64,000 nucleotides of DNA, taken from IMG/VR virus record IMGVR_UViG_3300028048_000052, positions 64,001 to 128,000 of that record. One strand, given 5' to 3'. The notes beneath the pieces were generated by a model. It was given only the letters and a program-made list of their open reading frames with translations, was not told where the DNA came from and ran no database searches. Of the stretch, positions 8,696-31,267 are shown piece by piece (position 1 is the first letter of the stretch; each line of letters starts with the position of its first letter). The translations under genes and the position numbers were made by a program. This DNA is from a virus (lineage: Duplodnaviria > Caudoviricetes).

Positions 8696-8708
8696 GAGGA
8701 AATAAATA

Positions 8709-9983: not shown

Positions 9984-10074
9984 TTAAAAACTCAATTTTC
10001 TTGAAACGATAGAAAATTATAATAAAAAATAAATTATAAACTTTTGAAACGATAGAGGGCATAATTTTTTTCTC

Positions 10075-10110
10075 GGGTAGAGGATACTATGTCCTCTACC
10101 CGTTTTTTTA
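10075..10110 (+). terminator. intrinsic terminator
   Basis: CGGGTAGAGGA...TCCTCTACCCG followed by a T run. Confidence 0.75.
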
Positions 10111-10125
10111 TTTTAGGAGATAATA

Positions 10126-10347: not shown

Positions 10348-10350
10348 TTT

Positions 10351-10983
10351 ATGGCTGATTTAAGTAAAATAAAATTAAATGGAGTTACTTATAATTTTAA
10401 AGATGCTGGTGCTCGTACTGCTATAGGAAACTTAACTTCTTTTAATATTGAAATTATTTCAAGTTTTCCGGCATCACCAGATCTTCATACAATTTATTTT
10501 AAACAAAAAACTGGAACAAATAATGATATATATGACGAATACATGTATATTAACAACAATTGAGAATTAATTGGCTCAACAGCAGTAGATTTAAGTAATT
10601 ATTTACAAACTACTGATATTGCGGATTGAGCAAAAGCCTCTACAAAACCAACTTATACGGCTTCTGAGGTTGGGGCTATAGCGACTACGCATGTCGTAAA
10701 CAATATTACTTCAACCGATATTTCAAATTGGAATGCTAAATCTGATTTCAGCGGTTCATATAATGATTTAACTGATCAACCAACTATTCCAGCAGCGCAA
10801 GTTCAGTCGGACTGAAACGCAACTTCTGGAATGGGCGCAATTTTAAATAAACCGACAATTCCAGATCCTGTTTCAGTTTCAAATACTCTTGCTTCTGGAA
10901 CTCTCATCGCAACAATTAATGGTACAAATATTTATGCGCCAACTTATACAAATGGAGATAATCTCGCTTATGGGGGTAATTAA
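10351..10983 (+). CDS. fibre protein (3 TGA=Trp)
   Basis: Read-through gives YDEYMYINNNWELIG, WAKASTKPTYTASEVGA and QVQSDWNATSG, typical phage fibre motifs; ends TAA. Confidence 0.85.
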
Positions 10984-10985
10984 TA

Positions 10986-11609
10986 ATGGCACAAGTTTTA
11001 ATTACTGATACAAAATTAAATAATTTAGCAAATGCAGTTGCTTCAAAAGCAGAGATATCAACCCCATTAACGATTCAACAAATGATTGACGCAGTTAATG
11101 GATTAGATACCGGTGGAGTTTATTTAAATTTACAATCAAAAACAATTTCGCCAACATCCAGTAGTCAGACAATTACCCCAGACTCTGGTTATAACGGTTT
11201 AAGTTCAGTTACAGTTAATCCTGTTAATTCAACAACTTTAAATGTTAGTGCGAATGGCACATATACTGCGACTAATGGTAATTTTTATTCACAGGTTGTA
11301 GTTGCTATTGAAGATAGTAAAGTTAATTTACAATCAAAAACAGCAACCCCATCTAATGTTCCTGTTTCAGTAACTCCTGATACGGGATACCATGGTTTAT
11401 CATCAGTTACAATTGACCCAATTCCATCAAATTATGCCGATATTTCATCAACAACAGCAACTGTTAATGATGTTTTAACGGGCAAAAGGTTTATTGACGC
11501 AAATGGAGCGCCAAAAACTGGCTTATTGGTCGCAAGTTCTTATTATGTTGGATCAACCGTTCCAGACGCTTCAACCGGCAATGATGGAGATTTATATTTA
11601 AGAATTTAG
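10986..11609 (+). CDS. putative tail/fibre protein
   Basis: Duplicated LQSKT...TPDxGYxGLSSVT; C-terminal GNDGDLY. Confidence 0.75.
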   Translation: MAQVLITDTKLNNLANAVASKAEISTPLTIQQMIDAVNGLDTGGVYLNLQSKTISPTSSSQTITPDSGYNGLSSVTVNPVNSTTLNVSANGTYTATNGNFYSQVVVAIEDSKVNLQSKTATPSNVPVSVTPDTGYHGLSSVTIDPIPSNYADISSTTATVNDVLTGKRFIDANGAPKTGLLVASSYYVGSTVPDASTGNDGDLYLRI

Positions 11610-11621
11610 GAGGTTTAAAAT

Positions 11622-14210
11622 ATGGCTACATATGATATAACATCAAGTTCATTTAATATTGATAATATAGAAGAAGGCGATATTTTAAATTGCTCTTATA
11701 CTGGGGATGAAACACAAATTACTTTACCAGAAGGTGTATATATATTAACTGCTAAAGGGGCTACAGGCAATTTTGGCGGAAGAAACTCAACTACTACTGC
11801 GACATATACAGCAGTTGGTGGTGGCGGAACTTCAACTGGCACATTAGAATTAGAAGAAGAAACTACTCTTTATATAAATATTGGCGGTTGTGGCGAAACT
11901 TATACAGGCACATCAACAAATTCTCGTACCGGTGGCTATAATGGAGGTGGTTCTGCCAATTCTTATGGAGGAGTTGGCGGAGGCGCCACGCATATAGCTA
12001 CCAGAAGTGGTTTACTATCTGCTCTTGAGAATTATAAAAATACGATTATTATGGTTGCTGGCGGTGGTGGTGGAAGCGCTTATTACGGTTCTAAATATTA
12101 CGGAAATGGTGGCTCTGGCGGAGGAACTTCTGGTGAAGCTGGAAAATCAAATGGCTCAAATAGTACAAACTATGCTGGCCAAGGTGGAACTCAATCAGAA
12201 GGTGGCGCCGCTGGAACCAATTCAACAAGAAAAGGAACCGCTGGCTCATTTGGCCAAGGTGGTGATAATACCAGTGGTACAAGTTCTTATGCTTCCGCAG
12301 CTGGTGGTGGTGGCTACTATGGTGGTGGCGCCGCCTCAAACCAAGAAGGTGGAGGTGGAGGTGGTAGTGGATATGTGTCTACTTCTTTCTTAACTAACGC
12401 ATCAACGACACAAGGCTCATCCACAAGCACTTATACAAACGGCAGTTTAAGCATTGAGGTAGTAAGTTTAGCAACTACTATTAAGCATAATCTTGATTTA
12501 ACCCTTTCTGGTGGTAATTATACTTCTAATCATACGAATGGGACAATAGAGAAAAAAGAGGGTAGTTCTGAAACTATTTCATTTATTCCTCTTAATAGCG
12601 AAGACCCAGTAACCACGTATAAAAATGGGGTTGATATTACAAATCAATTACAACAAAATACATTAACAAGCGCTCTTAATATTACAACCCAAGCATCTGG
12701 AGCAAGTTATGGTTTTACTTTAAATAGCTCAACAGGATATTATGTTTCAAATAATAAAGGGGTATCTAAATCTGCGGCGGTAGCAAGAGTAAATATCACA
12801 GCCATTCAAAAAACGACAGTAACCTTTAAAGTAATTAACTATGCTGAAGAAGGATATGACTTTGGTGTACTTGGTCTTTTGGATACAACGTTAGAACCGG
12901 TTTATAATTCTGATAACTCTGGTTATTGAAGCGGATTTTCTAGCGATCATAATAAATCTACTGCTCAAACCGTTACCTATACGGTTCCTATTGGAGAGCA
13001 CTTTATTGATGTAAAATATATTAAAGATGACGCGACTGATGATAATAATGATACTTTACAATTTAAAGTATCCATGAATCCAGCAGCCGGATCAACGGTA
13101 CAAGAATATTCGTTAAATACCGGAGCAATAAATCAAGATACAGAAATAAAAATTGTTTGTGGTGATATATCTTCAAACTTTAATATTCGTACTACTGGAG
13201 AACATGCGTCAATTGACCCAGAAGATGAACAAGTTTATAAAGGTTCTAACTTGGAAATTCATTTTATGCCGACAGATACTGCTGATTACCGATATAGTAA
13301 AGTATTAGATAATAACATAGATGTTACCTCTTCGGTTATTGTTCCGCATACATTAGAGGCGCCAAGTTATGAAGTTACTTCCGTAAGCGGTGCGAGTTAC
13401 GGGTTTGCGTTAACTAATGGATATTACCAATCTCAAAATACAGCAAATAATACGGCTGCCCTGTGTCATGTAGTATTTACCACCCCGGTCGCCGCGAGAG
13501 TAACTGTTACTTATCAAAATAGTGGTAGTAGTACATATAATTTTAGTATGATTTCTGAATTAAATACCGAATTAAGAACAGACTACGCAACAGATACCTC
13601 TGGTATTCGTATGAATGGTTCAAGCAATTTCCACTCAAGTGATACCAGTTATACATTTGATATTCCAGCGGGAGAAAGTTTTATTACTTGTAAGCACAAA
13701 ATTTCTTCAAATAGTGGCACAAAAGGTAATTTAAAATTCAAAATTTCAATAGAAGCATTAGAAAGTTTGGAAATACCTTACTATACATATTCATTAACTA
13801 ATATACAAGAAATTCATAATATTATAATTCTTTCTGAAAAAATTCCTGTTTACACAATTACTGCAACCTGTGGCCCAATGGGCACCATTAATCCAAGTGG
13901 CGCAATTCAGGTTAAAGAGGGCGAAAATTTAACTATCACTGGTACTGGGGATACAAATTATTCCGTTGATAAAATTTTCTTAAATTCAGTATCAGTTGCT
14001 TTTAGTAACAATAGTTATACTTTAAGTAATATTCAAAGCGATGCGAATATTTATGTTTTATTTTCTTCTGGCGAAACTCAATTTTATTGGAAAGATGAAA
14101 ATACTTGAAGACAAGTGGTCCAAGTTTATAAAAAAGTAGATGGACGTTGGATAGAACAAGAATTTGCGTTAGTTGGTGATCCTAATGCTAAATATATAAA
14201 GAAAAATTAA
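11622..14210 (+). CDS. large glycine-rich receptor-binding/tail protein, about 862 aa (2 TGA=Trp)
   Basis: Two track ORFs join in frame through TGA 12927 and 14106; glycine-rich domain then repeated SGASYGFxL beta domains. Confidence 0.8.
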
Positions 14211-14225
14211 TTTGGGGAGGAAAAT

Positions 14226-15047
14226 ATGAAAAACGAATATTTAATCTCTTTTGGGTGTATCCCAGATGAAGTTGATGTGCGTGATTATAAAATCTCAAGA
14301 GCTTCAATAAAACAGCAAAGTTTTCCAAAAACTTTTGAATGCGAAAAAACTATGAAAGTTAAACACCAAGGTAGTGTTGGTTCTTGTACTGCGCACGCAT
14401 TATCTTCAATTTTAGAATATCATTATACCGATAACGTAAAACTTTCTACAAATTTTCTTTACGGCATACATTATCAATTATATAATTCACAAGGACCGGG
14501 ATTAAGATTAAGAGAAGCATTAAAAATCGCCTCAAAATATGGAGATCCCGAAGAAAAATTATGTAAAGGGAATAATGAAGTAGAAAAAGTTTATAGCATA
14601 GCGGAAACCGCTTTTAATAACAAAGAAGTTATGAAAAATGCAGAAAAATATAAAATTAAAGAGTATGCTAGATTAACCAAAGATGATGATATAAAATTTT
14701 CATTAATTAATTATGGGCCGGTACTTGCGTCAATTGTGTGATATGAACAAAATGAAACCAATAAAAACGGGGTTTTAATTAAAGGCAAAACCGCAGATTC
14801 TCACCACGCTATTGTAATTTATGGGTGAAATGCCCAAGGATGACTTTGCCAAAATTCTTGAGGTGCATTATGGGGGAAAAGAGGCAGATTTATTTTACCT
14901 TTTAACTATGGAATTGTTGATGCATATTCAATAATCCCAAATAATGCCGAAGCATCAGAAATTAAAAAACCAATACAAAATTCTTTTGTTGACAGCATTT
15001 ATAAAGCAGTAAATAGTGTAATAAATTTATATAAAAAAAATAAGTAA
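14226..15047 (+). CDS. papain-like (C1) cysteine peptidase (4 TGA=Trp)
   Basis: QGSVGSCTAHA, HAIVIYGW and WLCQNSWGALWG; the His/Asn half appears only with TGA=Trp. Confidence 0.88.
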
Positions 15048-15056
15048 AATATAAGT

Positions 15057-15338
15057 ATGAAAATATATAGATATGAAATGGAAGATGGCGGAGGCCCATA
15101 TTTTACTTTTGATGGGGCTCAAAGAAAAACGGGACAAAAAATTCAAGAAAATTTTAATTATGTTTTTGGGTGCGAAAGTGAAGAACAATTAAAAGCATAT
15201 TTTAAAGGGAAAGAAAAAGAAATAAAAGATTGTGAAATTATCGTTAGAGATATTCCTGATGAATATATTACAAAATTAAAAAAACAAGTTATCTTTCCGA
15301 AGTTTTTAATAAATGGTCAAACTAAATTAAATAAATAA
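15057..15338 (+). CDS. hypothetical protein
   Basis: Track ORF, IYRYE...GGGPY. Confidence 0.6.
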   Translation: MKIYRYEMEDGGGPYFTFDGAQRKTGQKIQENFNYVFGCESEEQLKAYFKGKEKEIKDCEIIVRDIPDEYITKLKKQVIFPKFLINGQTKLNK

Positions 15339-15434
15339 ATCAAGAACTTAATATATATAGAGAAATATTTTTCCATTGGACAGTAAGATACGCGATGGAT
15401 TTGTTACGATAGAATAATTATGCGTATTTTACTA

Positions 15435-15470
15435 AACCCCTTGGGAAAATCCCCAAGGGGTTATTTTTTT
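15435..15470 (+). terminator. intrinsic terminator/attenuator upstream of the tail fibre gene
   Basis: AACCCCTTGGG-AAAAT-CCCCAAGGGGTT followed by a T run. Confidence 0.7.
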
Positions 15471-15485
15471 GGAAAGGAGATATAT

Positions 15486-17690
15486 ATGGCGTTATTTAAA
15501 GTTTTAAGAGGTACCGCGGCGACAATTGCGCCAGAATCAGCGACTAAGCCAGCTTTTAATGATGGTTATGCTTATTTTACTCCAGATGATGGTAGGTTTT
15601 ATATTGATGTTGAATTAGATGCTGATCCGCCATATTATTATGATAAAGCGGTAGTAAACGGAAAAACAATTTATCGTATTGAAATTGAAAGTAAAACTTG
15701 AGCAGAATTAATAAACACAAAATCTAATGTTAATCATACTCATAGCATAGATGATATTGACGATGTTGATGCCCCAGCTCTTGTAAATTATTATGGCACT
15801 TGCTCAACTTCTTCTTCAAGTCCAGAAAAAATTGTTACAGTTAATGGGTCTTTTAGTTTAGTGGAAGGCGTTCAAGTTACAGTTAGGTTTGTAAATGCGC
15901 CAGCTTATCAAGGAAGAGGATGAACTTTAAATGTTAATGGCACCGGAGCTAAAGCTATATACAAATATGGGACTACTGGCTCATATTCTTCTGGAGATGA
16001 TTCTTGGTACGCCGGTAGCATAGTTACTTTCACATATAACGGTTCAGCGTGGATTATAAATAACTGAGAAGGTACAACTTATAATGTAATTTCAACCTCT
16101 GGAATGACACTTAATAATACAAGTGCTGGATTGATAACCGGACAACGTATTTTACAATTAATAAATGGTCTTAATGGTTTTAATAATAGTGCGTTATATG
16201 CCACAGATTCTAAGTCTGGTATTATATCAGCAACTGATCACGCTACATTAACAGACCTCAATTCAAATGCTGTTAGAGCAAATGATGTAACAAGCCTTGA
16301 TGCAACTTTGGAATGAAATGCTTTTACCTCAATTGCAGATATTGGGGGTACAGAAATTGAAGTATCATTACCAGAATATCCAATTGAATTTGTAACATTA
16401 GCATATGATAGTGCGCAAAGTAAATTTGTAGTTGATAAAACATTTAATGAAATTGTTACTGCTTATCACGCTAATAAAAAGGTATATTTAATTGATGAAA
16501 CATCATCAATGTCACAACCAGAAATAGATACAGTAATAGCGCCATTAGTGGCTGTACAAGAAAGCACAAATTCAAATTACAAACATATTATTTTTGAAAC
16601 GCTTATATTAAGCGCAGGAACTATTTTTGAATATATTGTAGATGAAAATAATTCTGTAGAAACATATGCTGAAAATCTTATAATCAATGATACCAAAAAT
16701 ACAGCTGGATCGTCAAATTCTACAAGTAAAATGTTTTTAATTGGCGCTACGTCACAAGACGCCTTTGGTGTAACAACTTATTCAAATACCGCTGTTTATG
16801 CAACAAATGGCGCATTAACAGCAACAAGTTTTTCTGGCTCTGGCGCAAACTTAACAAGTTTAAACGCGGGCAATATTTCATCGGGTACATTACCAGTAGC
16901 AAGAGGTGGTACTGGACAAACAAGTATTCCTAATATTCAAGCTGGCAAAGATGGGGATGGAAATACAATTAGTTCTACTTATTTAAAACTTAGCGGTGGA
17001 ACTATGACTGGCGTTATAAATTCTTCTTTTAGAAGTAGCAGTTGAGTAAATAGTTTAACAAATTCAGCAATAACATTAACGGATGACACAAGTTCATATG
17101 GTGGTTGAATTTGTGGGCCAACTAAAAATGGAAGAATAGCAATATCAACTTATTCTTCTGATTCAGATTTATTATATTTTGGGTATGGAGAAAGAGGAAG
17201 AACAACAAACTCCTTCGCAAGACAAATGACATGAAATGGAGCAAACGGAACATTAACTGCTACAAAAGTCTATGGCGCAGTTTGGAACGATTTTGCTGAA
17301 TATCGCCAAGGCGAAAATAGTCCCGGTAAAGTAATGGTAGAAAATGGAGACGATTCAATTAGCATGTCTACTAAGCGATTACAACCGGGTGCAATGATTT
17401 GCTCTGATACTTATGGTTTTGCAATTGGTGAAACTGATGAGTGTAAATGCCCAATTGCGGTTGCAGGAAGAGTTCTTGCATATCCATTAGAGCCAAGAGA
17501 AGAATACAATTTCTTTATTGGGCAAGCTGTTTGTAGTGGGCCTGATGGTACAGTATCTATTATGACAAAAGATGAAGTTAAAGAATATCCTGAATGCGTT
17601 ATAGGATACATCAGCGCAGTACCAAAGTATGAAACTTGGGGTACTGATAATGTAAAAGTTGACGGCAGAGTTTGGATTAAAGTTAAATAA
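15486..17690 (+). CDS. tail fibre with C-terminal chaperone/autocleavage-like domain, about 734 aa (7 TGA=Trp)
   Basis: Four track ORFs join in one frame; TLNVNGTGAKAI, GTLPVARGGTG, YLKLSGGTMTG, YGAVWNDFAEY...VAGRV. Confidence 0.85.
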
Positions 17691-17967
17691 AATTTTGGGT
17701 AGAAAGCACTAAACTTTCTACCCCTATTTTTATATATAGTGTAGGGAAATGGTACTAAAATCCCCGCAAGCGTACGACTACGTTGAATAAAGACAATCGC
17801 GAATGTTTTTATTTAAAAAGTTAATTATGGAAATGTTTTATTAAAAAACATATCTAAATGTAGAGGCAAAAACAAAATAAAATTATAGTAAAAATGGGTA
17901 GATTAAATGTTTTTGATAGGATATTTCCATATTTTTTTTGTTTAAATATGAGAAAGGAAGACCTTAT

Positions 17968-18318
17968 ATGTACAATGGGAACATGTATAACAGTCCGTAT
18001 CTTTATAATATGACATTACAAAGACAAGAGGTAATAAGAGTTAATGGTAGAAATGGGGCAGAGGCATACCAAATGGCCCCGAATAGCAGTATTTTATTAT
18101 TAGATGAAACTGCGCCAATCGTTTGGTTAAAAACAACAGACGGTGCTTCATATCCAACTTTAAATGGATATGTAATTTCTCCTTTAAGAGAAAAAGGTGG
18201 AGAACACCCAGAATTAATTGAACTTGAAGAAAGAATTAAAAAATTAGAGGAGGCTTTCAATGCGTCAAAATCCAATGCTCCAAAAGCTAAGTCCAAGGAC
18301 GCCAGCACCGACAAATAA
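17968..18318 (+). CDS. hypothetical protein, gene 1 of five-gene cassette
   Basis: AAGGAAG RBS before ATG 17968; RVNGRNGAEAY...LKTTDG; coiled-coil end. Confidence 0.7.
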   Translation: MYNGNMYNSPYLYNMTLQRQEVIRVNGRNGAEAYQMAPNSSILLLDETAPIVWLKTTDGASYPTLNGYVISPLREKGGEHPELIELEERIKKLEEAFNASKSNAPKAKSKDASTDK

Positions 18319-18511
18319 TATGTTGTCATTACTACAAAACTCTAATAACCCTCAACAACTTATAAATAACATACTTACGCAAAATCCACAATTAACAAAT
18401 TTGATAAATCAATTTGGAAATGGAGACCCGAAAACTGCCTTTTATGAGTACGCTCGCCAGAGTGGTCAGGATCCCCAACAAGTACTAAATTTTTTACAAA
18501 AGTTTATGTAA
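18260..18511 (+). CDS. Gln/Asn-rich protein, gene 2 of cassette
   Basis: GGAGG RBS; NPQQ repeats. Confidence 0.7.
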   Translation: MRQNPMLQKLSPRTPAPTNNMLSLLQNSNNPQQLINNILTQNPQLTNLINQFGNGDPKTAFYEYARQSGQDPQQVLNFLQKFM

Positions 18512-18564
18512 AAAGATAAGGGCTTCCCTATCTATTTAGAACTTGTAATGGGAGGCAAAATATA

Positions 18565-20287
18565 ATGGATAATGGAAGTTTAAGTGCAAGCGATGTCGCT
18601 TTATTAAGCGATAGAGGCTATGGTTATGGCGATGGCATGTGGGGTGGAAACTCTATGATGTGGATATTCGCTTTATTAATTCTTGCCGGTGGCGGTTTTG
18701 GCGGATTTGGCGGTGGTTATGGCTATCATCCGCAATATGCTACACAGGATTTTGTGCAAAACGGTTTTAATTTTAATGATTTACAAGATCAGAACCGTGA
18801 TATCTTGGGCGCTATTACTTCTGGGACAGCTCAGTCTGTCGCAGCGACGAACCAGTCATTCCACGATATCACTGCAACTTTAAGTGATAAATATACTGAG
18901 TTACAGAGAGATATCGCTGGTTTAGCAGTTGGTCAAGCTAATTTATTAGCTAAAGAGAATGAGTGTTTAAATGCAGTAGACACTTATGCGTAGTAATACG
19001 CATTGGCAATTCGGTGAACTGCTGGAAAGCTAAGTTTACAAAAATTTGACTTTTATTCAAAAAATATGTATAATATTTATAACGATTGATGTTAAGAGGC
19101 GTTATAAAATGAAATTTTATGTATATGAATGATTTATAAAAAACACAAATGAAATATTCTATGTTGGAAAAGGGTGTAAAAATAGATATAAAGAAATAAA
19201 AAGAAGAAATAAAATATTTAAAATATTTTATGAAAATTTTGATTGTGATGTTAAGATAATTAAATATTTTGATAATGAAGATGAGGCTTTTTGTTTTGAA
19301 CATGAAAGAATTATGGAATTAAAACAAAATAATCAAGCAAAAGCAAATCTTGATTATGGCGGTAAAGGTGGATGTAATTTTGCTTGAACCGAAGAAATGA
19401 AAAATTACCAATCTATCTATAATCCAATGAAAGCTTATGAGCAACGAGAAAGAATGTCTAAAAACAACCCAATGAAAAATAAAGAAACAGTAAAAAAGGT
19501 TGTAAAAAAATTGTCTAAACCAGTTATAATAAATGGAATTTATTATAATAGCGTTAAAGAGGCAAGTATAAAAACATCACATACCGAAGGTACAATTTCA
19601 AGATGGTGTAAACAAGGATATGATACAAACGGAAAATCTTGTTATTATGCGAATGAAACACCAAAAGAAATACCGAATATAAAAAAGACGCACCCAAAAG
19701 CGACAACCCCTAAATCTGTAATTATAGATGAGATATATTTTGATACAGTAAAAGATGGAGCAGAATATATCGGGGTTTGGCCAGAAACTCTTATTAGAGC
19801 AATTAAACAAAATAGAAAATGTAAAGGTCATAATTGTAAATATGCCAATCAGCAACCAAGCATTAGTTTAAATGACTAATGAAGGCTCAACGACTAGGAA
19901 TTGAAACTATAAAAATAGAATATAATATTCCCACGAGTGCCGAACTCCTATTTTTAGGATGAAGATATAGTCTGAACTTATAGGAAACTATAAGAAATAT
20001 AAGATAAAGAGCTTATATGGTAACAAATTGGCTGTTCTACACTTAGAGCCATTGATGGTGTAAATTACAACGCGGCGATGAACACCGCAGCGATTAACGC
20101 CAACACAACAGCTCAAACACAGAAGATTTTAGATGCTATTACAGGAAATCGTATGGCAGATATGCAAAACGAAATTGATCAGTTAAAACTTGCTCAGGCA
20201 GTTGCTGGTGTCGTTCGCTATCCAACAGCAAGCACATATTATGCAGGAACCAATCCTTTCTGCGCATGTAGCGGTGCTACACTTTAA
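18565..20287 (+). CDS. Gly-rich/coiled-coil protein split by a group I intron (exons 18565-18967 and 20031-20287; 219 aa)
   Basis: Splicing yields AKENEC-C-CSTLRAIDGVNY, in frame with the 20078..20287 ORF. Confidence 0.8.
18968..20030 (+). mobile_element. group I intron carrying a homing endonuclease
   Basis: P1 GAGTGTT/GACACTT with U.G; GAACTGCTGGAAA...AATCAGCAACCAAG; CAACGACTA...GATATAGTCTG; terminal G. Confidence 0.88.
19109..19879 (+). CDS. intron-encoded GIY-YIG-like endonuclease (2 TGA=Trp)
   Basis: MKFYVYEWF...IFYVGKG...RY; NUMOD-like repeats. Confidence 0.8.
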
Positions 20288-20355
20288 TATATTCGGGGGT
20301 TCTTATGAACCCCTTTTTTGTTTTTAAATGGGAAAGAAATGGGAGGAAAACAAAA

Positions 20356-20766
20356 ATGTTAGAAATTTATTCAAAAAATGTTACAGTTTCAGCTGATGGA
20401 ACAATTCCATTAAATACGGTTGCGTTAATTAAAGGCACAAGCACTATGCCATTAGGCACTTCGTCAATTCAATTAACAAAATGTGGAGTTTATGAGGTTA
20501 CAGTATCTTATAGCGTTGTTGGTAGTGCTGCTGGCGAAATCTCCACTTCTTTATTAAAGAATGGCGTCGCCCAACCACAAGCAACAGCTTCATTAACATC
20601 TGCTGATGCAACAAGCATTTTATCAACTTCATTTACAACTTTAGTTCAAGTGCCAGAAAGTAGCAATATTAATTGCCCATGCTCTATGCCAACAACTATT
20701 AGTTTTATTAATGATGGAATTGAAGCAACTTATAATACATTTGATGTTACTGTAGTGCGCGTGTAG
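20356..20766 (+). CDS. beta-sandwich (BclA C-terminal-like) protein, gene 4 of cassette
   Basis: GGAGG RBS before ATG 20356; GVYEVTVS...LLKNGV. Confidence 0.65.
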   Translation: MLEIYSKNVTVSADGTIPLNTVALIKGTSTMPLGTSSIQLTKCGVYEVTVSYSVVGSAAGEISTSLLKNGVAQPQATASLTSADATSILSTSFTTLVQVPESSNINCPCSMPTTISFINDGIEATYNTFDVTVVRV

Positions 20767-20776
20767 GAGGTAGATT

Positions 20777-21343
20777 ATGGCTACCATAGAAGAAATTTAT
20801 TCAAACTTATCAGCGCATATGATTAAGGGTCTTATGGTGCATGACCAAATGGCAAGTTATTATTATTTTCTCAATTTAGAAGGTTATGCAAAATGTCATG
20901 AATGACACTATTGGGAAGAGAGTAAAAATTATTTATGCCTAAAAGAATATTATTTTAAACACCATCAAAAACTCATAAAAGAAAAATCTATTGAAAATCC
21001 GGAAGTAATTCCTTCCTCTTGGATGAGTTATACAAGAGAACAAGTTGATGTTAATACCAAAAGAAGTTCAGTCAAATCAGGACTTGAAAAATGAATTAGT
21101 TGGGAAGAAGAAACAAAAAAGCTATATGAAAAAAGTTATACTGATTTAATGGCTCTTGGATGTATTAGCGATGCAATATTTATTACAAAATTTTTAAAAG
21201 ACGTTGATTGTGAACTTGCGGATGTTAAAAAATATTATATTGAAAAACAAGATGGTGATTTTTTGATAGCTTCAATTATGGGCGACCAAAAATGTAAAAA
21301 AGAAGAATATGAAGAAAAAATGAGGGGAGTTAGCGAAAGCTAA
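20777..21343 (+). CDS. ferritin-like helical protein, gene 5 of cassette (2 TGA=Trp)
   Basis: AGGAGG RBS; H/E-rich helices (HMIKGLMVHDQ, HEWHYWEE, WEEETKKLYE). Confidence 0.7.
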
Positions 21344-21355
21344 TTCCCCTTTTTT
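21323..21355 (+). terminator. intrinsic terminator
   Basis: AGGGGAGTTAGC-GAAA-GCTAATTCCCCT followed by a T run. Confidence 0.8.
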
Positions 21356-21390: not shown

Positions 21391-23523
21391 ATGGAAAGAG
21401 AAAAAAAGTTTTATAAAATAGATTTAGATAATTTGGTTATTCCGTATGATAGGGATAGAAATTATAATGATCCAGAAAGGAATCCAGAAGGTGCTGATAC
21501 ATATCTTCCTCCTTATAGTAGTTATAAATTTAACTCTATTTATGAGGGCATAATAATAGAGATGCATATCGTGGATCACTGTAATTTAAATTGCTGTTCT
21601 TGCAATCATTTTTGCCCAATTGCTACACCAAAATATATTGAAGTAGAAGATTTTCGTAATCAATTAATAGCATTAAATGAGAATGTTCCAAATATAAAAG
21701 ATTTTATTATAATTGGAGGAGAGCCAACTTTACACCCAAAACTTTTAGAAATTTGTATTATAGCAAGACAAATATTAAGAAAAGCCGAAATACGTGTTTT
21801 AACAAATGGAGTAAACTTAGAGAATGTAATAGAAAAAAAGGACTATTATAAATCATTAAGAATAAGCTTTGATATCTGTAATTATCCTAGCTATACAAAT
21901 TTAGAACACTATAAAATATTAAAAGAAGCGGGAATAGCTGAGTTTAATAATAGTAGGGTAATTATGCAACAAATTATCGTTGATGAGGAGGGCAAAGAAA
22001 ATTATATAGATAATTATTATAATTGCCCAAAACATCAATTACCTTGTTTTACATTAAGAGATTATAAATTATATATATGTCCTTTTATGGAGCATTCTAG
22101 ACACTATTTTGCAAAAGTTGGATTAGAATACCCAATAGAAGAAAGTGATTATTTAGATATTCGTACTATTGGTGGGGATATTGACAAATTACAAACATAT
22201 ATTTTTACACCCAAAAAATTTTGTAAATATTGTGCTAGAAAAGGAGAAATAATTCCTTGAAATCGTAGTAGTTTTAGCGTGGATGAATATAAATATAGTT
22301 TAAGAGAGATGTATTTTAAAAATTATGATTTATATGAAAAAATTATTAATATAGATGAAACATTTTTTAAAAAAAGTTTTGATAAAAAATATAATCCTTG
22401 CGGAATTCGAGAAGATTTTTTAAGGCAAGAAACAACCAATTTATATAAGCTACGATATTTAACAGGGAAAATAGATATTATAATTCCATATTATAATTTA
22501 AATAAAGATCAAATTGACGAATTAGAAAATACATTGGTAGATCAAACAATAATTAAAGACTGTGTGATTTATTTTATTAGCGATAATTCTCCAAATGAAA
22601 AGGAAGTTTTTAATCGCTTTCATAACCATAAAATTTTAAATTGTATTATGCTAAAAATGCCAACTAGGTCTGGTCCGGGGGCAGCAAGGCAAAAGGGATT
22701 AGATAATTCTTATAGAGATTTTGTTTTTTTCTTAGATGCTGATGATAAATTTTTAAGGAATGATTTATTAGAAATTTTATATAAAATATTTATGACAAAA
22801 AATGAATTAAATGTAATTTTCTTTAATTGCTTTTCAAATTTAAACAAAAAGAATGCCTCCGAAAAAACGTCCTATTGTATAAAAAAAGATTTTTTAAATA
22901 CAAATAATATTCAATTTAATAATTGGTATTATGGAGAAGACTATCTTTTTATGTCAAAATTATATGCCTTTTTACCAGATTCTAGTATGTCTATAAGCAT
23001 AGGGCCTTCTATTGGGAAAACAGTATTATATAATGAAAAAAATGAGACAAATTTATCTACAGAATTACAAAAAATAAATAACTGAAAAGAAAAAATATTT
23101 TTTGTATTATTATCAGCAAGATTAGAATATTTATATTATTTAATTGATCATAATATTTTTAATGAAAATATATGAAATAATGCGTTAGAAAATGTGGCGA
23201 GCTGAATTAAAGAATATAATAACGAAAAAATGACCGATTTTATGATTTGTTATTGCTATTATTACTGCTTAAAGGCAAAAAACGCAAATAGTATATGCTT
23301 TAAAAATTTTGATTTTAAAAATTTTGAAATATTAAAATACCAAGTAGATAATAATATTATTAATTTTAATATTAATAATAATATAATAAATAATCACGAT
23401 AAATTAATTTTATATTTAATAGATTATATTGAAAAAAATTTTAATAATAAAGATCTATTAATACAACCAACCGTTGAAGATATTTTAACAGTATTAAAAG
23501 ATGAGGTGAAAGAAGATGAATAA
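21391..23523 (+). CDS. radical SAM-glycosyltransferase family 2 fusion, about 710 aa (4 TGA=Trp)
   Basis: CNLNCCSC and GGEPTLHP; then IIIPYYN, GPGAARQKG, FLDADD; three track ORFs in one frame ending TAA. Confidence 0.82.
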
Positions 23524-24640
23524 AATTAACAATCAATTTGTTTGTAAGGGATGTAAATATAGCACTTTATTTCATTGTGATAAATTTAATAAAGGCTGTG
23601 TTTCATATAGTTTAAATGGGCGCAGATACCAAATATGTTGCGATGAATGTATTCAAAATAATGGATATGTAGAAGGAGAAAAAGAAAAAAAAGAAAATAC
23701 AAAAAAAGCATATTTTCATCTTCCGGGAATTGAGAATTTAGATATTTTTATTCCATTAATAAAATTTAAGCAGTATTATCCAGAAGCTTGTTATGATGGC
23801 TTTGAAATTAGCGAAATTTATGGGGCTTTTTCTGGAGCAATTTGGAACGGAAGAACGCCTAATTATGATGGTGGACATATAAGTTATGAAGATATAGAAA
23901 GAATTCGTGATATTGCAGAAGAATTAAATATCTCTATTAATTTAACTTGGAATAATCATTTAATTACTGGGACAGACGTTTATGATAGATATTGCAATGC
24001 GATCACAGAAATTTTCCATGATGGAAAACACGCAATAACTGTTGCTTCAGAAGAATTATTTAATTATTTAAAAGAAAAATATCCTAATTTTAAATATTAT
24101 CAAAGCGTAATTTGTTCTTCTAATGACACTGTTGGGTTAAGCAAAAAAGACGAAAGATATGACATGTTTTTATGGACAAGATCTTTAAATAATAATTGGG
24201 AAGAATTAAAAAAAATCCCTTTAGAAGAAAGACCAACAATTGAATTTTTATGTAACGATGCATGTACTCCTATTTGTAATAGAATGGTACATTATAATAT
24301 CGTTAATAAATGTTTAAAAGATAGAAAAAGAGAAACAGAAGCAACTTTACTTGGAAATTATTGCACTATTGATCATGATTTTATGAATTACAACACCAAC
24401 AAATGGGCAATAACAATCAAACCAGAAGATATAAATCTTTATTTAAATGAAGGTTATTGCCATTTTAAGCTTTGTAGTCGTGGAGATATACCACCCGCAT
24501 TGGCGTTAAAAATAGCAAAATACATTGTTAAGCCAGAGTTTGTTGATGATGCTTTTACTTGAATGATACATGGATTAACGCAAACCTCAGAAGAAATAAA
24601 TTTATTAAATAAAGGAGAAAGTAATAATGATAAAAATTAA
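23516..24640 (+). CDS. U32 peptidase-like (probable Fe-S) protein with Cys-rich N-terminus
   Basis: WNGR, LCNDACTPICNRMVHY, FKLCSR; extends through TGA 24560 to TAA. Confidence 0.6.
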
Positions 24641-24866
24641 TGATACATTAATAAACGGTTTAAAAAAAGTTGTAATTAGCAAAAAACCAACTTCGCCTTT
24701 ATTAGAAATAACATTGTTTGGTTCTTCTGATATTGATTTAAATTTATTTTTAAATAAAACCGTTTCTATTAAAAAAGATGACGGTTTATTAATTAAAAAA
24801 TTATATATTTATATTATTTATGAAGAAAAAGATAAATATATAATTTTTGGAGAGGAGAAAGATTAA
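24627..24866 (+). CDS. hypothetical protein
   Basis: AAGGAG RBS; coupled to neighbours. Confidence 0.6.
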   Translation: MIKINDTLINGLKKVVISKKPTSPLLEITLFGSSDIDLNLFLNKTVSIKKDDGLLIKKLYIYIIYEEKDKYIIFGEEKD

Positions 24867-25195
24867 TGGAAAAGAAAACAATTAAATTTATTTTTAAGCA
24901 AGATGAAGATTTAGAATCATTGGATTATGAAATTGATAATATTAGTTATGATATTTCAATTGGCTATACCAAATCAACTAATTTATCAAGAAAGCCAGAA
25001 TTTAGAATTGCTTCATCATTGGTAAAATTAGATGATATTTGGGAAAAAATTGAAAAATTAAATTTTGAAAAAATAGCCACAATTGAAGTATATAAAGACG
25101 CAGAAAAGAAAATGTCTTTTGATTTTAATTTTCTTTCAGCTTCATACAGCATTACTGTTGATGATGAAGTTCAAGAAGAAATTGTTTTAATTTAA
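24866..25195 (+). CDS. hypothetical protein
   Basis: GAGGAG RBS; TAATG overlap. Confidence 0.6.
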   Translation: MEKKTIKFIFKQDEDLESLDYEIDNISYDISIGYTKSTNLSRKPEFRIASSLVKLDDIWEKIEKLNFEKIATIEVYKDAEKKMSFDFNFLSASYSITVDDEVQEEIVLI

Positions 25196-25207
25196 GGAGT
25201 TTATTTT

Positions 25208-25957
25208 ATGGCAACTGCAAATTTTAAAGCTGGCGATATAGTTGATGATGCAGAATTTAATAAACTATTTGAACAATTAGAAGAAATTAGGAAGGTGCAC
25301 AAAGCAGCCAGTGGGTTAACTAGTGCACAACAAACCGCCTTATCAACCGCTTATAATACGACAGTTGCTAATGCAGGAGTAACTGTACGAACATCTGTAC
25401 CAACAGAGTTAAAAAATGATATTACTAATTTAGAAAATTCTCCGTATCTATCTGGGTTTTCATCTCAAATAACGATACCAACAGTTGGAGCCTTATTGTC
25501 ATTTAGTATGTCAAGCGGATGGCAAACGGTTGTAACAAATATGAAAAACGCATGCGCGAATTGTAGTTATTTTAGTTCTAATTTTACTTCCGCTGCGAAC
25601 AAAGGTAATTTTAGTAGTAATTTTACATCAGCAGCAAATCAAAGTAATTTTAGTGCTAATTTTACTTCCGCTGCGAATAAAGGTAATTTTAGTAGTAATT
25701 TTAGTAGTAATTTTAGTCCTAATTTTACATCAGCAGCGAATAAAGGTAATTTTACTGCTAATTTTACTTCTAATAAATCTAGTAATTTTACAAATAATTT
25801 TTCTAGTTATTTTAGTACAAATGCTAGTAAAGGATATTTTTCTTCTAATCAGTCAAACTTTACTTCGAATAAGTGTTCAGGGATATTTAAAATTTTTAAT
25901 GAAAAATATAATACAAATTTAAAAATAAAAAGGATATATAATTGGGTTTTTAATTAA
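25208..25957 (+). CDS. repeat protein, candidate substrate of the neighbouring enzymes
   Basis: About 115 aa N-terminal domain, CANC, then 17 F-[ST]-x units (SNFTSAANKGNF repeats). Confidence 0.75.
   Translation: MATANFKAGDIVDDAEFNKLFEQLEEIRKVHKAASGLTSAQQTALSTAYNTTVANAGVTVRTSVPTELKNDITNLENSPYLSGFSSQITIPTVGALLSFSMSSGWQTVVTNMKNACANCSYFSSNFTSAANKGNFSSNFTSAANQSNFSANFTSAANKGNFSSNFSSNFSPNFTSAANKGNFTANFTSNKSSNFTNNFSSYFSTNASKGYFSSNQSNFTSNKCSGIFKIFNEKYNTNLKIKRIYNWVFN
25561..25875 (+). repeat. coding tandem repeat (AATTTTACT/AATTTTAGT units with 12- and 39-nt periodicity)
   Basis: Repeated AATTTTAC[TA]TC[CA]GC[TA]GC[GA]AA...GGTAATTTT with synonymous variation. Confidence 0.8.
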
Positions 25958-25967
25958 GGAGGAAAAA

Positions 25968-27365
25968 ATGAATTATTATCAACCTCAAAAACCCTCATTT
26001 ATTGATTCAATAAGCGTTATATCTTCTGCGACCTGTAATTTAAACTGTTCTTTTTGTTATTTAAATAAAAACGAAAGTTATAAAATTTTTAACGAAGAAG
26101 TTCATAAAGCATGGCAAGATGGAAGCTATTTAGACAATATTTTAAAAACCGTTATAAATTTTCCTGCTAGTCCAGAAAAAGTAAAAATTATACAGTTATG
26201 AGGTGGAGAAACTCTATTAAATATAGATGATATTACTAAAAATCTATCAAAATTTTATTACTATTTTCCTCAAATTGAGGAATGAAAAGTTTCTACTAAC
26301 TGGGTTATAAATATTGATAATTTTTATAATTTTTTATGTGAATTAGATAAAATTGCGCCTAAAAAAGTAATTTTTTCATTACAAATATCAATAGACGGTC
26401 CAGAAGGAATATATACAGAACAAGGACATAATGGAAAATGAGAGATTTATAATAAAAATTTTGATAAATTTTTTAATTTAATTAATAATACTTTTTTTAA
26501 AAATCTTTGTATTAATTTAACTATTAATGCAACGGTAGCAGAAAATATTTATTATGAACAATTTGGCGATTATAATAATATGAAAAATTATATGGAATAT
26601 ATGTATAATTTTAGCAAATATTTAGAAAAAAACTGTATTAATAAAGCATTAAATTATTGTTCATATGTTGTTTTCCCCGGCATGTCTTTACCTTATTATG
26701 ACTCTGTTGAAGACGGACAAAAATTAGCTAATATATTTGCTTTATGAGATAGAGTAAAAGCAGAAAATTTTCCAGATATTGATAAATATTTTTGCTTCTA
26801 TTATGGAATGAACGATTTTGGATTAAATAAAGCCTATAATTTACCAAATATAGAATGTAGCGAATTAAAAAATAGTGTAACAATTAATCCGGATGGATCA
26901 ATTTGCGAATGCAATGGGTCATTTATTGATCATTTAGATATATATAAAAAAGAATTAGAAGAAAAGGGATTAGATAAAGAATTGAAAGTTTCAAAACTAA
27001 GAGATAAAATAAACTATAATCCCGGAAAAATGACAAAAGAAGAAATAGAAAAACATGATTGGTATATAAAATATGGTTATAAAAACAATACATCAACATA
27101 TTTAATGGCGATGTTTGCCGTATGTAAAGAATTATTAAAATGCGGTCAAATATCTAAAGAATATGAAGATGATGATTTATTATTAAAGCATTTGGTGGCA
27201 TTATCAACCCTTATATCATGTACAAGAGAAAATTTAAAAGAAACAGGAGTTCCATATCTAATCACAGCATCTTGCTTTAGAAGATATTTAAATGGTGCTA
27301 TGGATTATATATATAATAATAATGTATTAAAATTAAAGCATTATAATAATTTTGATTATAATTAA
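25968..27365 (+). CDS. radical SAM enzyme with Cys-containing C-terminal extension, 465 aa (4 TGA=Trp)
   Basis: CNLNCSFC, QLWGGE, STN, QISIDG, INPDGSICEC. Confidence 0.85.
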
Positions 27366-27403
27366 TTATTTTAGTATAATTTTAAGGTTAAAGGAGTTTA
27401 AAA

Positions 27404-28819
27404 ATGGAAAACTGTTTAATATCGGTATTGCCAAAAAATGATGATGCTTCATCCAATTTTAAAACAGAGGATAAAATTTTAGCAAATAATATATTAAAAA
27501 CAAAATTTTATAATTTCTTTAAAAAAGGACAAAAAACTTTAGAAATTTTTTTAATTGGCGCTTGCAAAGCAAATTGCGAATATTGCTATTTAAAAAAGCA
27601 TATAAAAGAATTATATCCATTAGCATTACATAATCAAGAAAAAATTTTAAGTAATTTTAGTTTAATTATTGATTGGTATATAGAAAATGAATTTACTTGT
27701 CCAATTGATATATTCAGCGCAGAATGAATAACAACACCATTAGCAAACAAAATATTTGATATTTTATATGAAAAATTTTCAAATGTAGAAAAATCAAAAT
27801 TACCAAAAGATATTAGAATTGCTGATAATATGCAATTTTTAAAAGATGAAAAAGCAACTGCTGATTTAGAGGCAAATATAGATAGATTAAAATCAATCGG
27901 AATAGATTTTCTTATTTCAGCAAGTGTTGACGGAAAATTCTGTGATTTTGGAAGAACAGAAGTAGAAGACGATTTCTATAATAAATTAAATCTTTTTTTA
28001 GAAAAACATAAATATTATGTTCACCCAATGATCTCTTCTAATAATGTAAAATTTTGAATACAAAATTTTAAATGGTGGAAAGAAAATTTTTCTCCACGAG
28101 TTTGAGATAGAATTATGTCTTTAGAAGTAAGAGATAATACATGAACAGATAAATCTATTCAACAATTAATTCAATACTGTGATTTTTTAGCAGATGAAAA
28201 ATTTAAATATTTTAATTATGATAAAAAAACAATGTTAAAATTTATTCTTAGTCTTCCAACCCCAGTATATGGAGACACAGAAGATACACCACCAGTATCT
28301 TATAATGTAATTGGTCTTCCATCTGTTGATACTTGTTATAATAACGACACAACTTGCTGTAGTATTGGCAATGTCCTCGTTATTAGGGCAGCAGATTTGG
28401 TTGTTAACCCGTGTCATAGAACTTATTATGAAGAGTTAAAACTGGGAGAATACGAAATAATTAATAATAAAATTGGAGATTTTGTGCCAACGAATCCTGC
28501 TCTTCTGGCATTATATACAAATATAAAAAGATCTTGTTTCCCACATTGTGAAAATTGTAAATTCCAAGGAGTTTGCGTTGGACACTGCCATGGGGCAAGT
28601 TATGAAGAATATAGAAATTTATTAGTGCCTCAATATGAAGTTTGTAAAATGTACAGAGCAAAACTTACTTTCTTAATATATAAATATAATATATTAGGAA
28701 TTTGAGATGAATTAGATAATTTAACAGATCAAGAAATATCTCCAATGAGAAAAACATATTTAAAAGACTTAATCAATTCAATCCTTTATAACATGGAAGG
28801 AGAAAAGCCTGTATGTTAG
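27404..28819 (+). CDS. radical SAM/SPASM enzyme, 471 aa (5 TGA=Trp)
   Basis: CKANCEYC, SASVDG; SPASM-type C...PCHR...CENCKFQGVCVGHCHG...C. Confidence 0.87.
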
Positions 28820-29124
28820 ACGATTTTCAAAATATAATTCAATATAGTTACTGTAAAGAGATTGATGAATTATCTTGACAAAGTATTGAAAAAGAATTAG
28901 ATAAAATGATCGTTGAAAACGGGGACGGAATGGGCCCTTATTCAATTATTGATTTTGAAAGATTACTTTTTTTAGAAAATTTTATAAATTCATGAGATAA
29001 TGATGACTCAAACAAAGAAAGACTACTGGGAAAATTATTTCAAATAAAAGATATTATAGTAAATAATTATATTTATAAAAAAAGATTAATCCAAAGATGT
29101 AATTTAAAAGAATGGGAAATATAA
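28813..29124 (+). CDS. small helical protein (2 TGA=Trp)
   Basis: AAGGAG RBS; overlaps the radical SAM stop; absent from the track. Confidence 0.65.
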
Positions 29125-29194
29125 TCCCATTCTTTTTTTTTGCTTTTATTAAGATTATATCTTATAATTTTAATAAAAGGAGAATAAAAAATAT

Positions 29195-30013
29195 ATGAAT
29201 TATGCTTATGTAACTTTATTCGGTACAAATGATTTTTTTCCAAACATTTTAGCATTGTCAATTAGTTTTAAAACAGCAAATTCAAAATACCCATTAATTA
29301 TATTGGTGAATGAAACAATTGATCAAAAAAATATATTATATTTACAAAACAATAATTTAGGAATTATAAAACAAATACCAAACTGGCTATATCATAATGA
29401 TTATTATAATCATTATCCAGTAGAAGAAAAAATAAAACATTATCAATGCACTAGACAAAAATTTGAAGCATTTAACTTAACTGAATATGATAAATTATGT
29501 CTTTTAGATGCAGATGTTGTTTTTTACAAAAACGAAAATTTTGATGATATTTTTGATGAAAAATATGATTTTATTTTCTATGATAAAGGTATATTATATG
29601 AAAATGAAAAAGAATTACATCAATTAGCTAGTGAAACATATTTTTTAACGCCAAACAAAGAATTATATTTACAATTAATATCAGATACATTTTTTTCTTG
29701 AAATGAACAAAGTGTTTTAAATAAACATTTTTTACCTTTAATATCATCGGGCATATATAAAATTATGCCAAATATAATAAAGAACGAAAATGATAATGAA
29801 TATGAACAACTTTATTATGAAAAAATTATTGTACATAATGATATTAAAGAAAGTATTAGGGTAGAAAAAATTAGTGATATTTTTGATTATGTAAAAAAAG
29901 TAAATGAAAATTTATTTTATTCAAAAAAAGACCCTGCTTTAACAAAAGAAGAATCAATTCAGAAAAATCCATATTTAAACGAATATTTAACAAATAAAAA
30001 GGATATTATTTAA
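29195..30013 (+). CDS. glycosyltransferase family 8 (1 TGA=Trp)
   Basis: YAYVTL, KFEAFNLTEYDKLCLLDAD, WNEQSVLN. Confidence 0.82.
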
Positions 30014-30014
30014 A

Positions 30015-31190
30015 ATGAAAAATAAATTAAGTTTATTTACATTAATAGGACTTTTAGCAGGCATTTTATTTGGGCTACTTGCTCAACAACAATATATTTC
30101 AACGATTGCACCAATAGGTACATTATATATAACAATATTAAAATATATGGCTGTGCCGGTTGTATTTACAAGTATCACCGTTTCTGTATTTAATTCAATT
30201 AAATTAAATAACAAATTAATACCAAAAACATTATTAACCTTTGCTTTAATGTTTATTGCTACATTCCTATTATCCTCTGCAATAGTAATGGTAATTAATC
30301 CAGCAAACAGGTTTGTCCTTGAATCTACAGAATGGAATGGATCTACCGCAAATCTTAATATTGGAAATATGTTATTAAATCTATTACCAAAAAACTTAAA
30401 TAAATTTCTAACGGGAGGATATTTATTCTTTACAATTTTAATTTCATTCGTAATGGGGCTTGTTTGTAATTACACCAACTATGGTCAAAATATTATAAAT
30501 GTTATAAGCAAAGTAAGAGATTTCCTTATTAAAATATTAGATTATTTTATGTGGGTATCTCCAATCGCTGTTTTTGCGCTTATTAGTAACACAGTGGCGA
30601 CCTATGGACCAATAGTAGTAGGCGTTGGTACAAAATATATTTTAACAGCATATATTTGCACAATTATTGCTTTGGTTGTTATAATGATTTTACCAATTCT
30701 CTTGATTTGTAAAATATCACCAAAAACTTTTATTAAAAAAGTTTATAAGATTTGGTTAATCACATTAAGCACATGCTCAAGCGCGGCTACTTTACCATAT
30801 ACCATCAAGACTTGTAAAGAAGAATTCAATATACCAGAAGAGGTAACTGATGTAGTAGTACCGCTTGGCACAACAATTCATATGTGCGGCGGAGCAGTTT
30901 CATTCGCTCTATTGGGGTTGTTCTGTGCGAAATTATTTAGCATTGAAATAACATTCACAAAGTATCTAATGATGTTATTTTTCGCAATGATGATTAATAT
31001 GGCCGCGCCCGGTATTCCTAACGGCGGAGTTGTTATTGGAGCAACTTATTTACAGCTTTTGGGGATTCCGTTAGACTTTATAGGCTTTTATAGTGGTATT
31101 TATAAACTACTTGATATGGTTTATACTTCACTAAATGTCACTGATGATATAGCCTCAAATGTAATAATTAATTATTTAAGGGAGAATTAA
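30015..31190 (+). CDS. dicarboxylate/amino acid:cation symporter (DAACS family)
   Basis: STCSSAATLP, PLGTTIHMCG, APGIP; multiple transmembrane segments. Confidence 0.9.
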   Translation: MKNKLSLFTLIGLLAGILFGLLAQQQYISTIAPIGTLYITILKYMAVPVVFTSITVSVFNSIKLNNKLIPKTLLTFALMFIATFLLSSAIVMVINPANRFVLESTEWNGSTANLNIGNMLLNLLPKNLNKFLTGGYLFFTILISFVMGLVCNYTNYGQNIINVISKVRDFLIKILDYFMWVSPIAVFALISNTVATYGPIVVGVGTKYILTAYICTIIALVVIMILPILLICKISPKTFIKKVYKIWLITLSTCSSAATLPYTIKTCKEEFNIPEEVTDVVVPLGTTIHMCGGAVSFALLGLFCAKLFSIEITFTKYLMMLFFAMMINMAAPGIPNGGVVIGATYLQLLGIPLDFIGFYSGIYKLLDMVYTSLNVTDDIASNVIINYLREN

Positions 31191-31267
31191 TTCTCCCTTT
31201 ATTTTTTTATATTGACAAAATTTGACTTTTATGATATAATTATATTGTAAAAGGAGAAAAATAAGAT

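Follow-up and report, generated by a model that had tools for sequence, protein, structure and literature searches.

The window analysed here comprises 64,000 nucleotides (bases 64,001–128,000) of a virus record that is a single contig of 175,154 bp and has a terminal repeat (IMG/VR record IMGVR_UViG_3300028048_000052; Duplodnaviria, Caudoviricetes), a phage that is also present in bovine and sheep gut sequencing runs. Between positions 21,391 and 30,013 it carries a real, conserved and widespread cassette, whose core consists of seven genes: a U32-family protein, two small proteins, a repeat protein, two radical SAM (S-adenosylmethionine) enzymes (rSAM-1 and the SPASM-containing rSAM-2) and a small helical partner (Table 1). 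We propose, with a probability of about 0.55, that the repeat protein is a late-expressed appendage of the phage particle, modified repeatedly along its tail.

The initial annotation had named the repeat protein as the substrate from adjacency only. This assignment now extends beyond a single neighborhood, because 63 of 64 loci found through the enzyme carry a repeat protein. To avoid circularity, loci were collected with rSAM-2 alone, and 64 clusters at 90% identity had enough flanking sequence; rSAM-1 is adjacent to rSAM-2 in all of them and a small repeat-tail protein lies beside the pair in 63. An automatic rule identified a low-complexity or N-domain protein directly upstream in 56 clusters; of the remaining eight, two reveal the repeat protein when read with code 15 and in four it lies just downstream; in one a His-x-Ser protein is found at a distance of 2.3 kb, and L103 alone lacks any. 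Downstream of the pair, the background with true cases removed is about 6 of 58. Five other phage lineages (L001, L002/L003, L004, L138 and, up to the contig end, L139) share the order U32, two small genes, repeat protein, rSAM-1, rSAM-2, partner; such a synteny check had been proposed earlier. Genomes with two enzyme pairs (L004, L036) have a separate repeat protein for each pair, and the linked pairs span gut, sediment and other phages. Together with the RiPP (peptide made by the ribosome and modified post-translationally) enzyme YcaO beside some relatives, this linkage bears out the idea of a phage-encoded RiPP-like radical SAM system, in which the repeat protein is very probably the substrate. 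Co-occurrence of other genes with the 64 pairs is lower (U32 12, YcaO 5, GT2 4, GT8 3). It is quite improbable that the repeat protein plays a structural role without being modified, that the enzymes act on DNA, tRNA or a small metabolite, and that their co-location reflects shared late regulation. Such a scheme would suit the GT2/GT8 enzymes, which could glycosylate hydroxylated bases, but it is opposed by the 63/64 linkage across such different phages, by the duplication of paralogous pairs along with the repeat protein, and by the nearest solved enzyme relatives, which are mostly peptide maturases. In its favor, the U32 proteins characterized so far act on RNA bases and ubiquinone precursors, which they hydroxylate, and not on proteins (PMC5727448, PMC6599085, PMC10990095); it is more plausible for the U32 protein and glycosyltransferases alone.

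The repeat protein comprises a helical N-terminal domain (N-domain, about aa 1–115), a CxxC junction (aa 116–119) and a repeat tail (aa 120–221) made of 9-residue FTSAAxxGN and 4-residue FSSN units. The tail counts reported earlier proved exact: 17 F-[ST]-x, 12 F-x-S and 14 N-F-[ST], plus NCS, NQS (twice), NKS and NAS. Its 18 sequons (shuffle mean 7.9) and 17 aromatic-[ST] pairs (mean 7.0) were never reached in 5000 shuffles. In the predicted structure the confidence score (pLDDT) is mostly 81–98 for the N-domain and below 55 for the tail, and no signal peptide is predicted. The C-terminus (window 25868–25957) consists of a Lys-Cys-Ser-Gly motif, a possible processing site, and some 25 residues of unrelated sequence; a few relatives (P0020, P0024, P0033, L030, L044) have comparable KC[GS] termini. 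Searches revealed 19 close homologs, in nearly all of which the aromatic residues of the tail are spaced 9 and 4, and 161 relatives by profile search (50% clustering). Common to all relatives is a helical N-domain of about 115 residues, followed by tails whose varied repeats are rich in Phe, Tyr or His combined with Ser, Asn, Gly and Asp, and in 111 of 143 the junction bears Cys or CxxC; across homologs the repeats differ freely in number and order, without a spacer or cleavage pattern. The N-domain profile matches Cys-repeat phage proteins (4e-8), the ESM Atlas loosely links the repeat protein to viral PF27846 proteins, and the profile link of the phage N-domain to those of distant loci, which are shorter and start with Trp, is only moderate (hhalign 80%). 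The phage N-domain has no sequence match in the PDB; IglD (Z 6.5) and TssK (Z 5.9) were rejected as its fold relatives, their scores being within noise.

Both enzymes are members of the radical SAM superfamily, with CxxxCxxC invariant in both alignments. In 35 homologs of rSAM-1 the invariant cysteines are C23/C27/C30, C297, C315 and C418, i.e. only three auxiliary ones instead of the seven-Cys SPASM motif, which is consistent with one putative auxiliary cluster. The full SPASM pattern noted earlier for one enzyme belongs to rSAM-2, where C54/C58/C61 and C319, C337, C382, C385, C391, C395 and C414 are invariant in 34 homologs; CteB has a seven-Cys pattern of this kind. rSAM-2 matches TIGR04085 below the cut-off. 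The nearest solved relatives are CteB, ChlB, anSME and TigE for rSAM-1, and CteB, TigE and ChlB for rSAM-2, and neither sequence leaves room for an N-terminal RiPP recognition element (RRE). Since both enzymes score far below every curated model, though the solved structures closest to them belong mostly to peptide maturases, they form, judging from these comparisons, an unnamed enzyme family. A small gene placed comparably to the partner follows the pair in most distant loci inspected. In a prokaryote collection (one genome per species, 185,579) only three matches were found, all on contigs of metagenome-assembled genomes, one of which coincides with a viral contig in both length and match position; the enzyme family is thus essentially viral. 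A distant homolog matches radical SAM genes of Campylobacter Firehammervirus (25%), whose annotated neighborhood lacks the cassette. IMG/VR scans with the repeat protein, a single rSAM-2 sequence or U32 gave no match, possibly due to TAG recoding; those with rSAM-2 alignments succeeded.

The triad enriched in the tails is [Phe/Tyr/His/Asn/Asp]-x-[Ser/Thr]: in close homologs aromatic-x-Ser/Thr is enriched 2.3-fold, the Asn sequon 2.0-fold and His-x-Ser/Thr 2.8-fold, and the residue preceding the aromatic one is Asn (151), His (31), Asp (14), Phe (12) or Tyr (8). The Asn sequon is one case of this triad and is often replaced by His, therefore N-glycosylation is unlikely to be its purpose. A tail serving mainly as a scaffold for sugars put on Asn-x-Ser/Thr by GT2 or GT8, one of the options of the initial annotation, would agree with the 18 sequons and their enrichment, and the radical SAM–GT2 fusion adjoins the cassette here, in L139 and in L027/L028. 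We nevertheless consider it very unlikely indeed: Asn frequently gives way to His, Asp, Phe or Tyr, His-x-Ser/Thr is the more enriched motif, glycosyltransferases are rare among the relatives and absent from the fetched flanks of the orthologous L001–L004 and L138, and GT8 lies past a terminator. At most one sequon is found in 39 of 113 distant tails. Sequon-reading transferases are oligosaccharyltransferase and GT41, and GT2 and GT8 are not known to be such families. O-glycosylation of Ser/Thr or of new hydroxyls may occur as an accessory step.

The second option was FxsB-type cyclophane cross-links. Aromatic-x-x motifs are present and may be read in either of two registers (Phe-x-Ser/Thr and Asn/Tyr-Phe-Ser/Thr), and Y-S-K, H-A-S and F-T-K are proven cyclophane motifs (PMC12912966). 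However, neither enzyme reaches the cut-off of any cyclophane synthase, and related enzymes accompany aromatic-poor tails. With the curated models of enzymes that form three-residue cyclophanes (3-CyFE: YhhB, AmcB, GrrM/OscB, XyeB) the scores were 17–22 bits vs cut-offs of 310–445, with weak matches only among the 34 rSAM-2 homologs. Cyclophane formation is our best single, still tentative guess for the phage member; other C-H chemistries, such as cross-links to Asn, epimerization or an HxsA-like change, may take place instead.

The U32-like call was confirmed: for the AlphaFold2 model the best match is the U32 protein Mk0906 (PDB 5D88), ranked first by two programs (Foldseek 6.5e-6; Z 13.9 with the second, root-mean-square deviation 3.9 over 216), and the conserved Cys cluster includes the invariant C250/C254, accompanied by a KL-x-x-R motif. 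The orthologs are 58–61% identical, while Pfam U32 weakly matches 2 of 17 homologs; the start is most likely at 23516, where a ribosome-binding site is found. By analogy to RlhA, TrhP and UbiU/UbiV, the protein is a putative O2-independent hydroxylase. Two or three U32 paralogs per locus occur in L025, L027/L028, L031 and L044, in some with YcaO, rSAM–GT2 and GT8, making up enlarged sets of tailoring genes. Of the two small proteins, the 109-aa one is detectably similar to its L004 copy (5e-6) and has no reliable ESM Atlas family, and the 79-aa one has no match in family-library scans. The radical SAM–GT2 fusion (Pfam Radical_SAM 7.8e-9, over the cut-off; GT2 4.4e-14) is an accessory member: its ortholog in L139 is 49% identical, and none was seen in the fetched flanks of L001–L004 or L138. 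In L139 both rSAM–GT2 and YcaO lie directly upstream of the cassette; YcaO was not found in the phage genome studied here. The GT8-like protein (DxD at 105) is 30% identical to an L027 protein that matches Pfam GT8 just under the cut-off. Its placement in the core by the initial annotation could not be upheld, as it lies beyond the second terminator and near only three of the 64 related pairs; it is at most accessory and probably belongs to a separate unit with an intact sodium:dicarboxylate symporter gene (window 30015–31190; Pfam SDF 2.6e-77), a relative of which is found in L008. In two distant phages (L008:118–816 and L029:4328–5386) an aldo/keto-reductase-like gene with a ferredoxin-type Cys motif, recognized by inspection, lies just upstream of the enzyme pair.

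Retranslation with code 4 recovered all ten open reading frames (ORFs) on the + strand, so the tightly packed island is as listed earlier. The claim that it is seen only after reading TGA as Trp does not extend to the repeat protein and the two small proteins, which lack TGA and can be seen with code 11, nor fully to U32, nearly whole (348 aa) in that code. For the genome as a whole, the coding density reaches 0.84 with code 4, compared with 0.68 with code 11. Because 6 of 10 TGA codons in U32, rSAM-1 and rSAM-2 are aligned with Trp in all three orthologs and none with Gly, TGA evidently encodes Trp in this phage; the lack of TGA–Gly pairs in the three enzyme alignments rules out code 25 (TGA = Gly). 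The genome has 9 tRNA genes, none of them for a TGA-suppressor tRNA according to ARAGORN. The cassettes of close relatives read TAG as Gln, therefore the cassette crosses genetic codes. In a second DNA sample the region is contained in one contig, with 72 substitutions and 0 indels.

The initial annotation allowed for a virion protein or a precursor, and codon use and gene context favor the former. TGA accounts for 16/32 Trp codons of the cassette, against 1/57 in nine annotated replication genes (p=5e-8); the head/portal module, with 26/62, resembles the cassette (p=0.5). In the TAG phage L002 the TAG:CAG ratio is 27:2 in the cassette and 2:31 in the upstream genes. In phages of this kind, recoded stops are a mark of late genes for structure and lysis (bioRxiv 10.1101/2021.08.26.457843). 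Fifteen of the 64 cassettes adjoin a gene that ends in a domain matching the self-cleaving chaperone of the gp12 appendage of phi29 (E 6e-4). A Hint domain forms the C-terminus of four proteins that share the N-domain (P0032, P0036, P0064, P0088; two checked in Pfam), and Cys-repeat relatives at L033:11810–12684 and L056:3985–4870 end in the first motif of the S74 fiber chaperone, the remainder of which forms the next ORF, split alike in both contigs. No ABC-exporter motif was found within 5 kb in any of the 64 loci, nor a protease or exporter in the cassette. The late-type TGA use, the gp12-type neighbors, the Hint and S74 endings and the lack of signal peptide, exporter and protease give indirect support to a location in the phage particle, which is moderately likely. 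The Hint-fused P0032 (L134:381–1268) lies directly before a radical SAM gene.

It appears doubtful that the modified repeat protein acts outside the particle, be it in the infected cell or at its envelope (for instance as an HxsA-like effector of superinfection exclusion or counter-defense) or as multi-core RiPP peptides released at lysis. The architecture of two radical SAM enzymes, a small partner and a tripeptide-repeat protein is HXS-like (PMC13128918), the large folded N-domain could serve as a leader, YcaO occurs near the five pairs mentioned and in L139, and terminators of its own delimit the unit, which is represented in the RNA library. However, the missing signal peptide, exporter and protease, a late-type codon use that fits exclusion or counter-defense poorly, the free variation of the repeats with no spacer or cleavage pattern, the fiber-gene context and the self-cleaving C-terminal modules of relatives all argue against such an outside role; as for core-peptide release, a host protease could act where the cassette encodes none.

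Several observations weigh against the proposal of a modified particle appendage. Homing-endonuclease-like and cell-wall-enzyme-like genes also use TGA freely, hence TGA use means 'not needed early' rather than 'structural'. The cassette is situated outside the main tail module, 3.7 kb after a fiber-like gene cluster, and fold searches with the N-domain yielded generic helical bundles (best Z 7.4) and no convincing match to a known fiber. The enzyme pair of L103 has no repeat protein nearby, and none was seen in L007/L008 (44% identity; incomplete records). Searches of GenBank phages (tblastn with rSAM-2, the N-domain and a Cys-type relative) detected no cultured phage with the cassette. One enzyme clade (support of 100% in a quick tree whose tail labels, assigned automatically, are crude and give 'Y' for several Asn-Gly tails) pairs with Asn-Gly tails poor in aromatics, and L062 combines an rSAM-2 of 46% identity with a different tail; because of these tails a cyclophane cannot be the family-wide reaction, and the chemistry probably varies across the family. 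Clustering of tail types on the rSAM-2 tree was rejected as a sign of co-evolution, as it reflects kinship. The fiber-like cluster itself (window 5064–17690, 55% TGA) has PHROG tail fiber/spike matches at 6254, 6632 and 10351 and is far from the main tail module.

With these reservations, the cassette would be expressed late and serve as a kit that matures one small protein of the phage particle. The helical N-domain would anchor the repeat protein to the particle and probably also act as the recognition site for the enzymes; rSAM-1 and rSAM-2, with the small partner, would work along the Ser/Thr/Asn/Phe tail and leave a repeated covalent modification, in the simplest case cross-links between the Phe ring and the residue at +2 (Ser/Thr). 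The U32 protein may add O2-independent hydroxyls, and GT2, GT8 or YcaO could tailor the product further in some lineages. The result would be a stiffened or chemically masked short fiber, not a released peptide. The boldest form of this proposal, that a phage-restricted paired radical SAM family builds many C-C cross-links and U32-made hydroxyls into a virion fiber, is possible, though speculative; if true, RiPP chemistry would be a structural step of virus assembly and the U32 enzyme the first one acting on a protein.

Terminator-like hairpins flank the cassette, and a third one lies at 31178. In an RNA library one contig ends at 21303 and the next three cover 21391–22802, 22806–29110 and 29192–31153, thus breaking near the hairpins where the DNA contig is continuous. 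These contigs, from one metatranscriptome sample of one study, cannot rank expression or prove a single transcript, and give a weak hint that 21391–29124 is one transcription unit and GT8 with the transporter another. A block of small genes just upstream (window 17938–21343; RNA-contig depth 139 vs about 20) ends at the 21322 terminator, and a perfect extended sigma-70 promoter (12/12) at window 31212–31240 lies where a TGA-poor early region starts.

Table 1. Features of the cassette and RNA genes, in window coordinates
Feature	Position	Strand	Remarks
tRNA-Ile	362–436		UAU anticodon
Transfer-messenger RNA (tmRNA), phage	817–1162		
tRNA-Trp(CCA)	4094–4168		
Intrinsic terminator-like hairpin	21322–21351	+	13-pair stem and T run; closes upstream unit
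Radical SAM–GT2 glycosyltransferase fusion, 710 aa	21391–23523	+	Accessory member
U32-family TIM-barrel Fe-S protein, 374 aa	23516–24640	+	Core gene; Cys-rich N-terminal extension
Small protein, 79 aa	24627–24866	+	Core gene; 81–84-aa gene at same place in L001–L004, L138, L139
Small protein, 109 aa	24866–25195	+	Core gene; 104–113-aa gene at same place in L001–L004, L138, L139
Repeat protein, 249 aa	25208–25957	+	Predicted substrate; adjacency and conserved linkage to enzyme pair
rSAM-1, radical SAM enzyme 1, 465 aa	25968–27365	+	CxxxCxxC and auxiliary Cys conserved
rSAM-2, radical SAM/SPASM enzyme 2, 471 aa	27404–28819	+	Seven-Cys SPASM pattern
Partner, 103 aa	28813–29124	+	Core gene; homologs directly after rSAM-2 in L001, L003, L007, L008
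Terminator-like hairpin	29106–29136	+	Ends cassette
GT8-like glycosyltransferase, 272 aa	29195–30013	+	Similarity via L027 relative

A literature search, with limited coverage of subscription journals, retrieved no paper on the cassette or on radical SAM modification of a phage-particle protein. Radical SAM peptide chemistry has so far been a matter of bacterial natural products and, since 2026, of one anti-phage effector. If phages finish their own particles in this way, virion proteins would carry an unrecognized class of modification, which could change host recognition or stability, and the modified peptides would escape standard virion proteomics. Standard-code annotation misses the locus in both TGA- and TAG-recoded lineages, and the proposed role may account for some of the radical SAM genes in large phages that lack an explanation so far. 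With its enzyme pairs for repeats of Phe, Tyr/Asp, His and Asn-Gly type, the family is a natural panel on which specificity and chemistry are testable in E. coli without phage culture.

Among known systems the closest in working is HXS (HxsA–D; TIGR03976–03979), where maturation of a whole protein with X-x-Ser repeats takes two radical SAM enzymes plus a small partner (Li et al. 2026, PMC13128918). The HXS system is bacterial and anti-phage, and its exported product has His-x-Ser repeats and a peptidoglycan-binding domain, whereas the present cassette is phage-borne, includes U32, and has Phe/Asn repeats on a different N-domain with no signal peptide. Membership in HXS was rejected, with no match to TIGR03977/03978 at E<=0.1 for either enzyme and no His in the tail; 8 of 34 rSAM-2 homologs weakly match HxsB. 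The triceptide enzymes (FxsB, XyeB, GrrM/OscB, YhhB, ChlB, MicB), which link aromatic-x-x motifs (PMC12912966), share with the cassette an RRE-less radical SAM/SPASM enzyme and the presence of multiple such motifs, and ChlB (9GM3) is among the nearest solved relatives; unlike them, the cassette has two enzymes and a partner instead of one enzyme, and its roughly 17 motifs lie on a protein of 249 aa that includes a folded domain. It encodes neither protease nor exporter, and its family includes aromatic-poor tails.

The CXXX-repeat system (TIGR04114/TIGR04115, PF27846) also combines a radical SAM maturase with a small partner and a repeat target, but rSAM-1 scores 23 bits vs a cut-off of 350 and the tail has no Cys repeat. 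A true CXXX-repeat system is encoded elsewhere in the same genome, outside the window (G000:C1 57597–60852), with a small partner, a TIGR04115 maturase (57967–59031; 372 bits, over the cut-off) and a 558-aa Cys-repeat target; this locus is TGA-rich (9/17 Trp codons). CteB and PapB (ranthipeptides) and TigE (poly-cyclopropylglycine), the latter with a repeat-type precursor, give the best sequence matches among solved structures (5WGG, 8VPO), whereas the cassette enzymes have no N-terminal RRE and are far below the model cut-offs, and thiols are found in the repeat protein only at the CxxC junction and in one late Cys. Finally, the U32 protein shares its barrel and conserved Cys cluster with the hydroxylases RlhA, TrhP and UbiU/UbiV; the substrates of these are RNA and quinone precursors, while the present gene has a fixed place in an operon whose putative role is protein modification.

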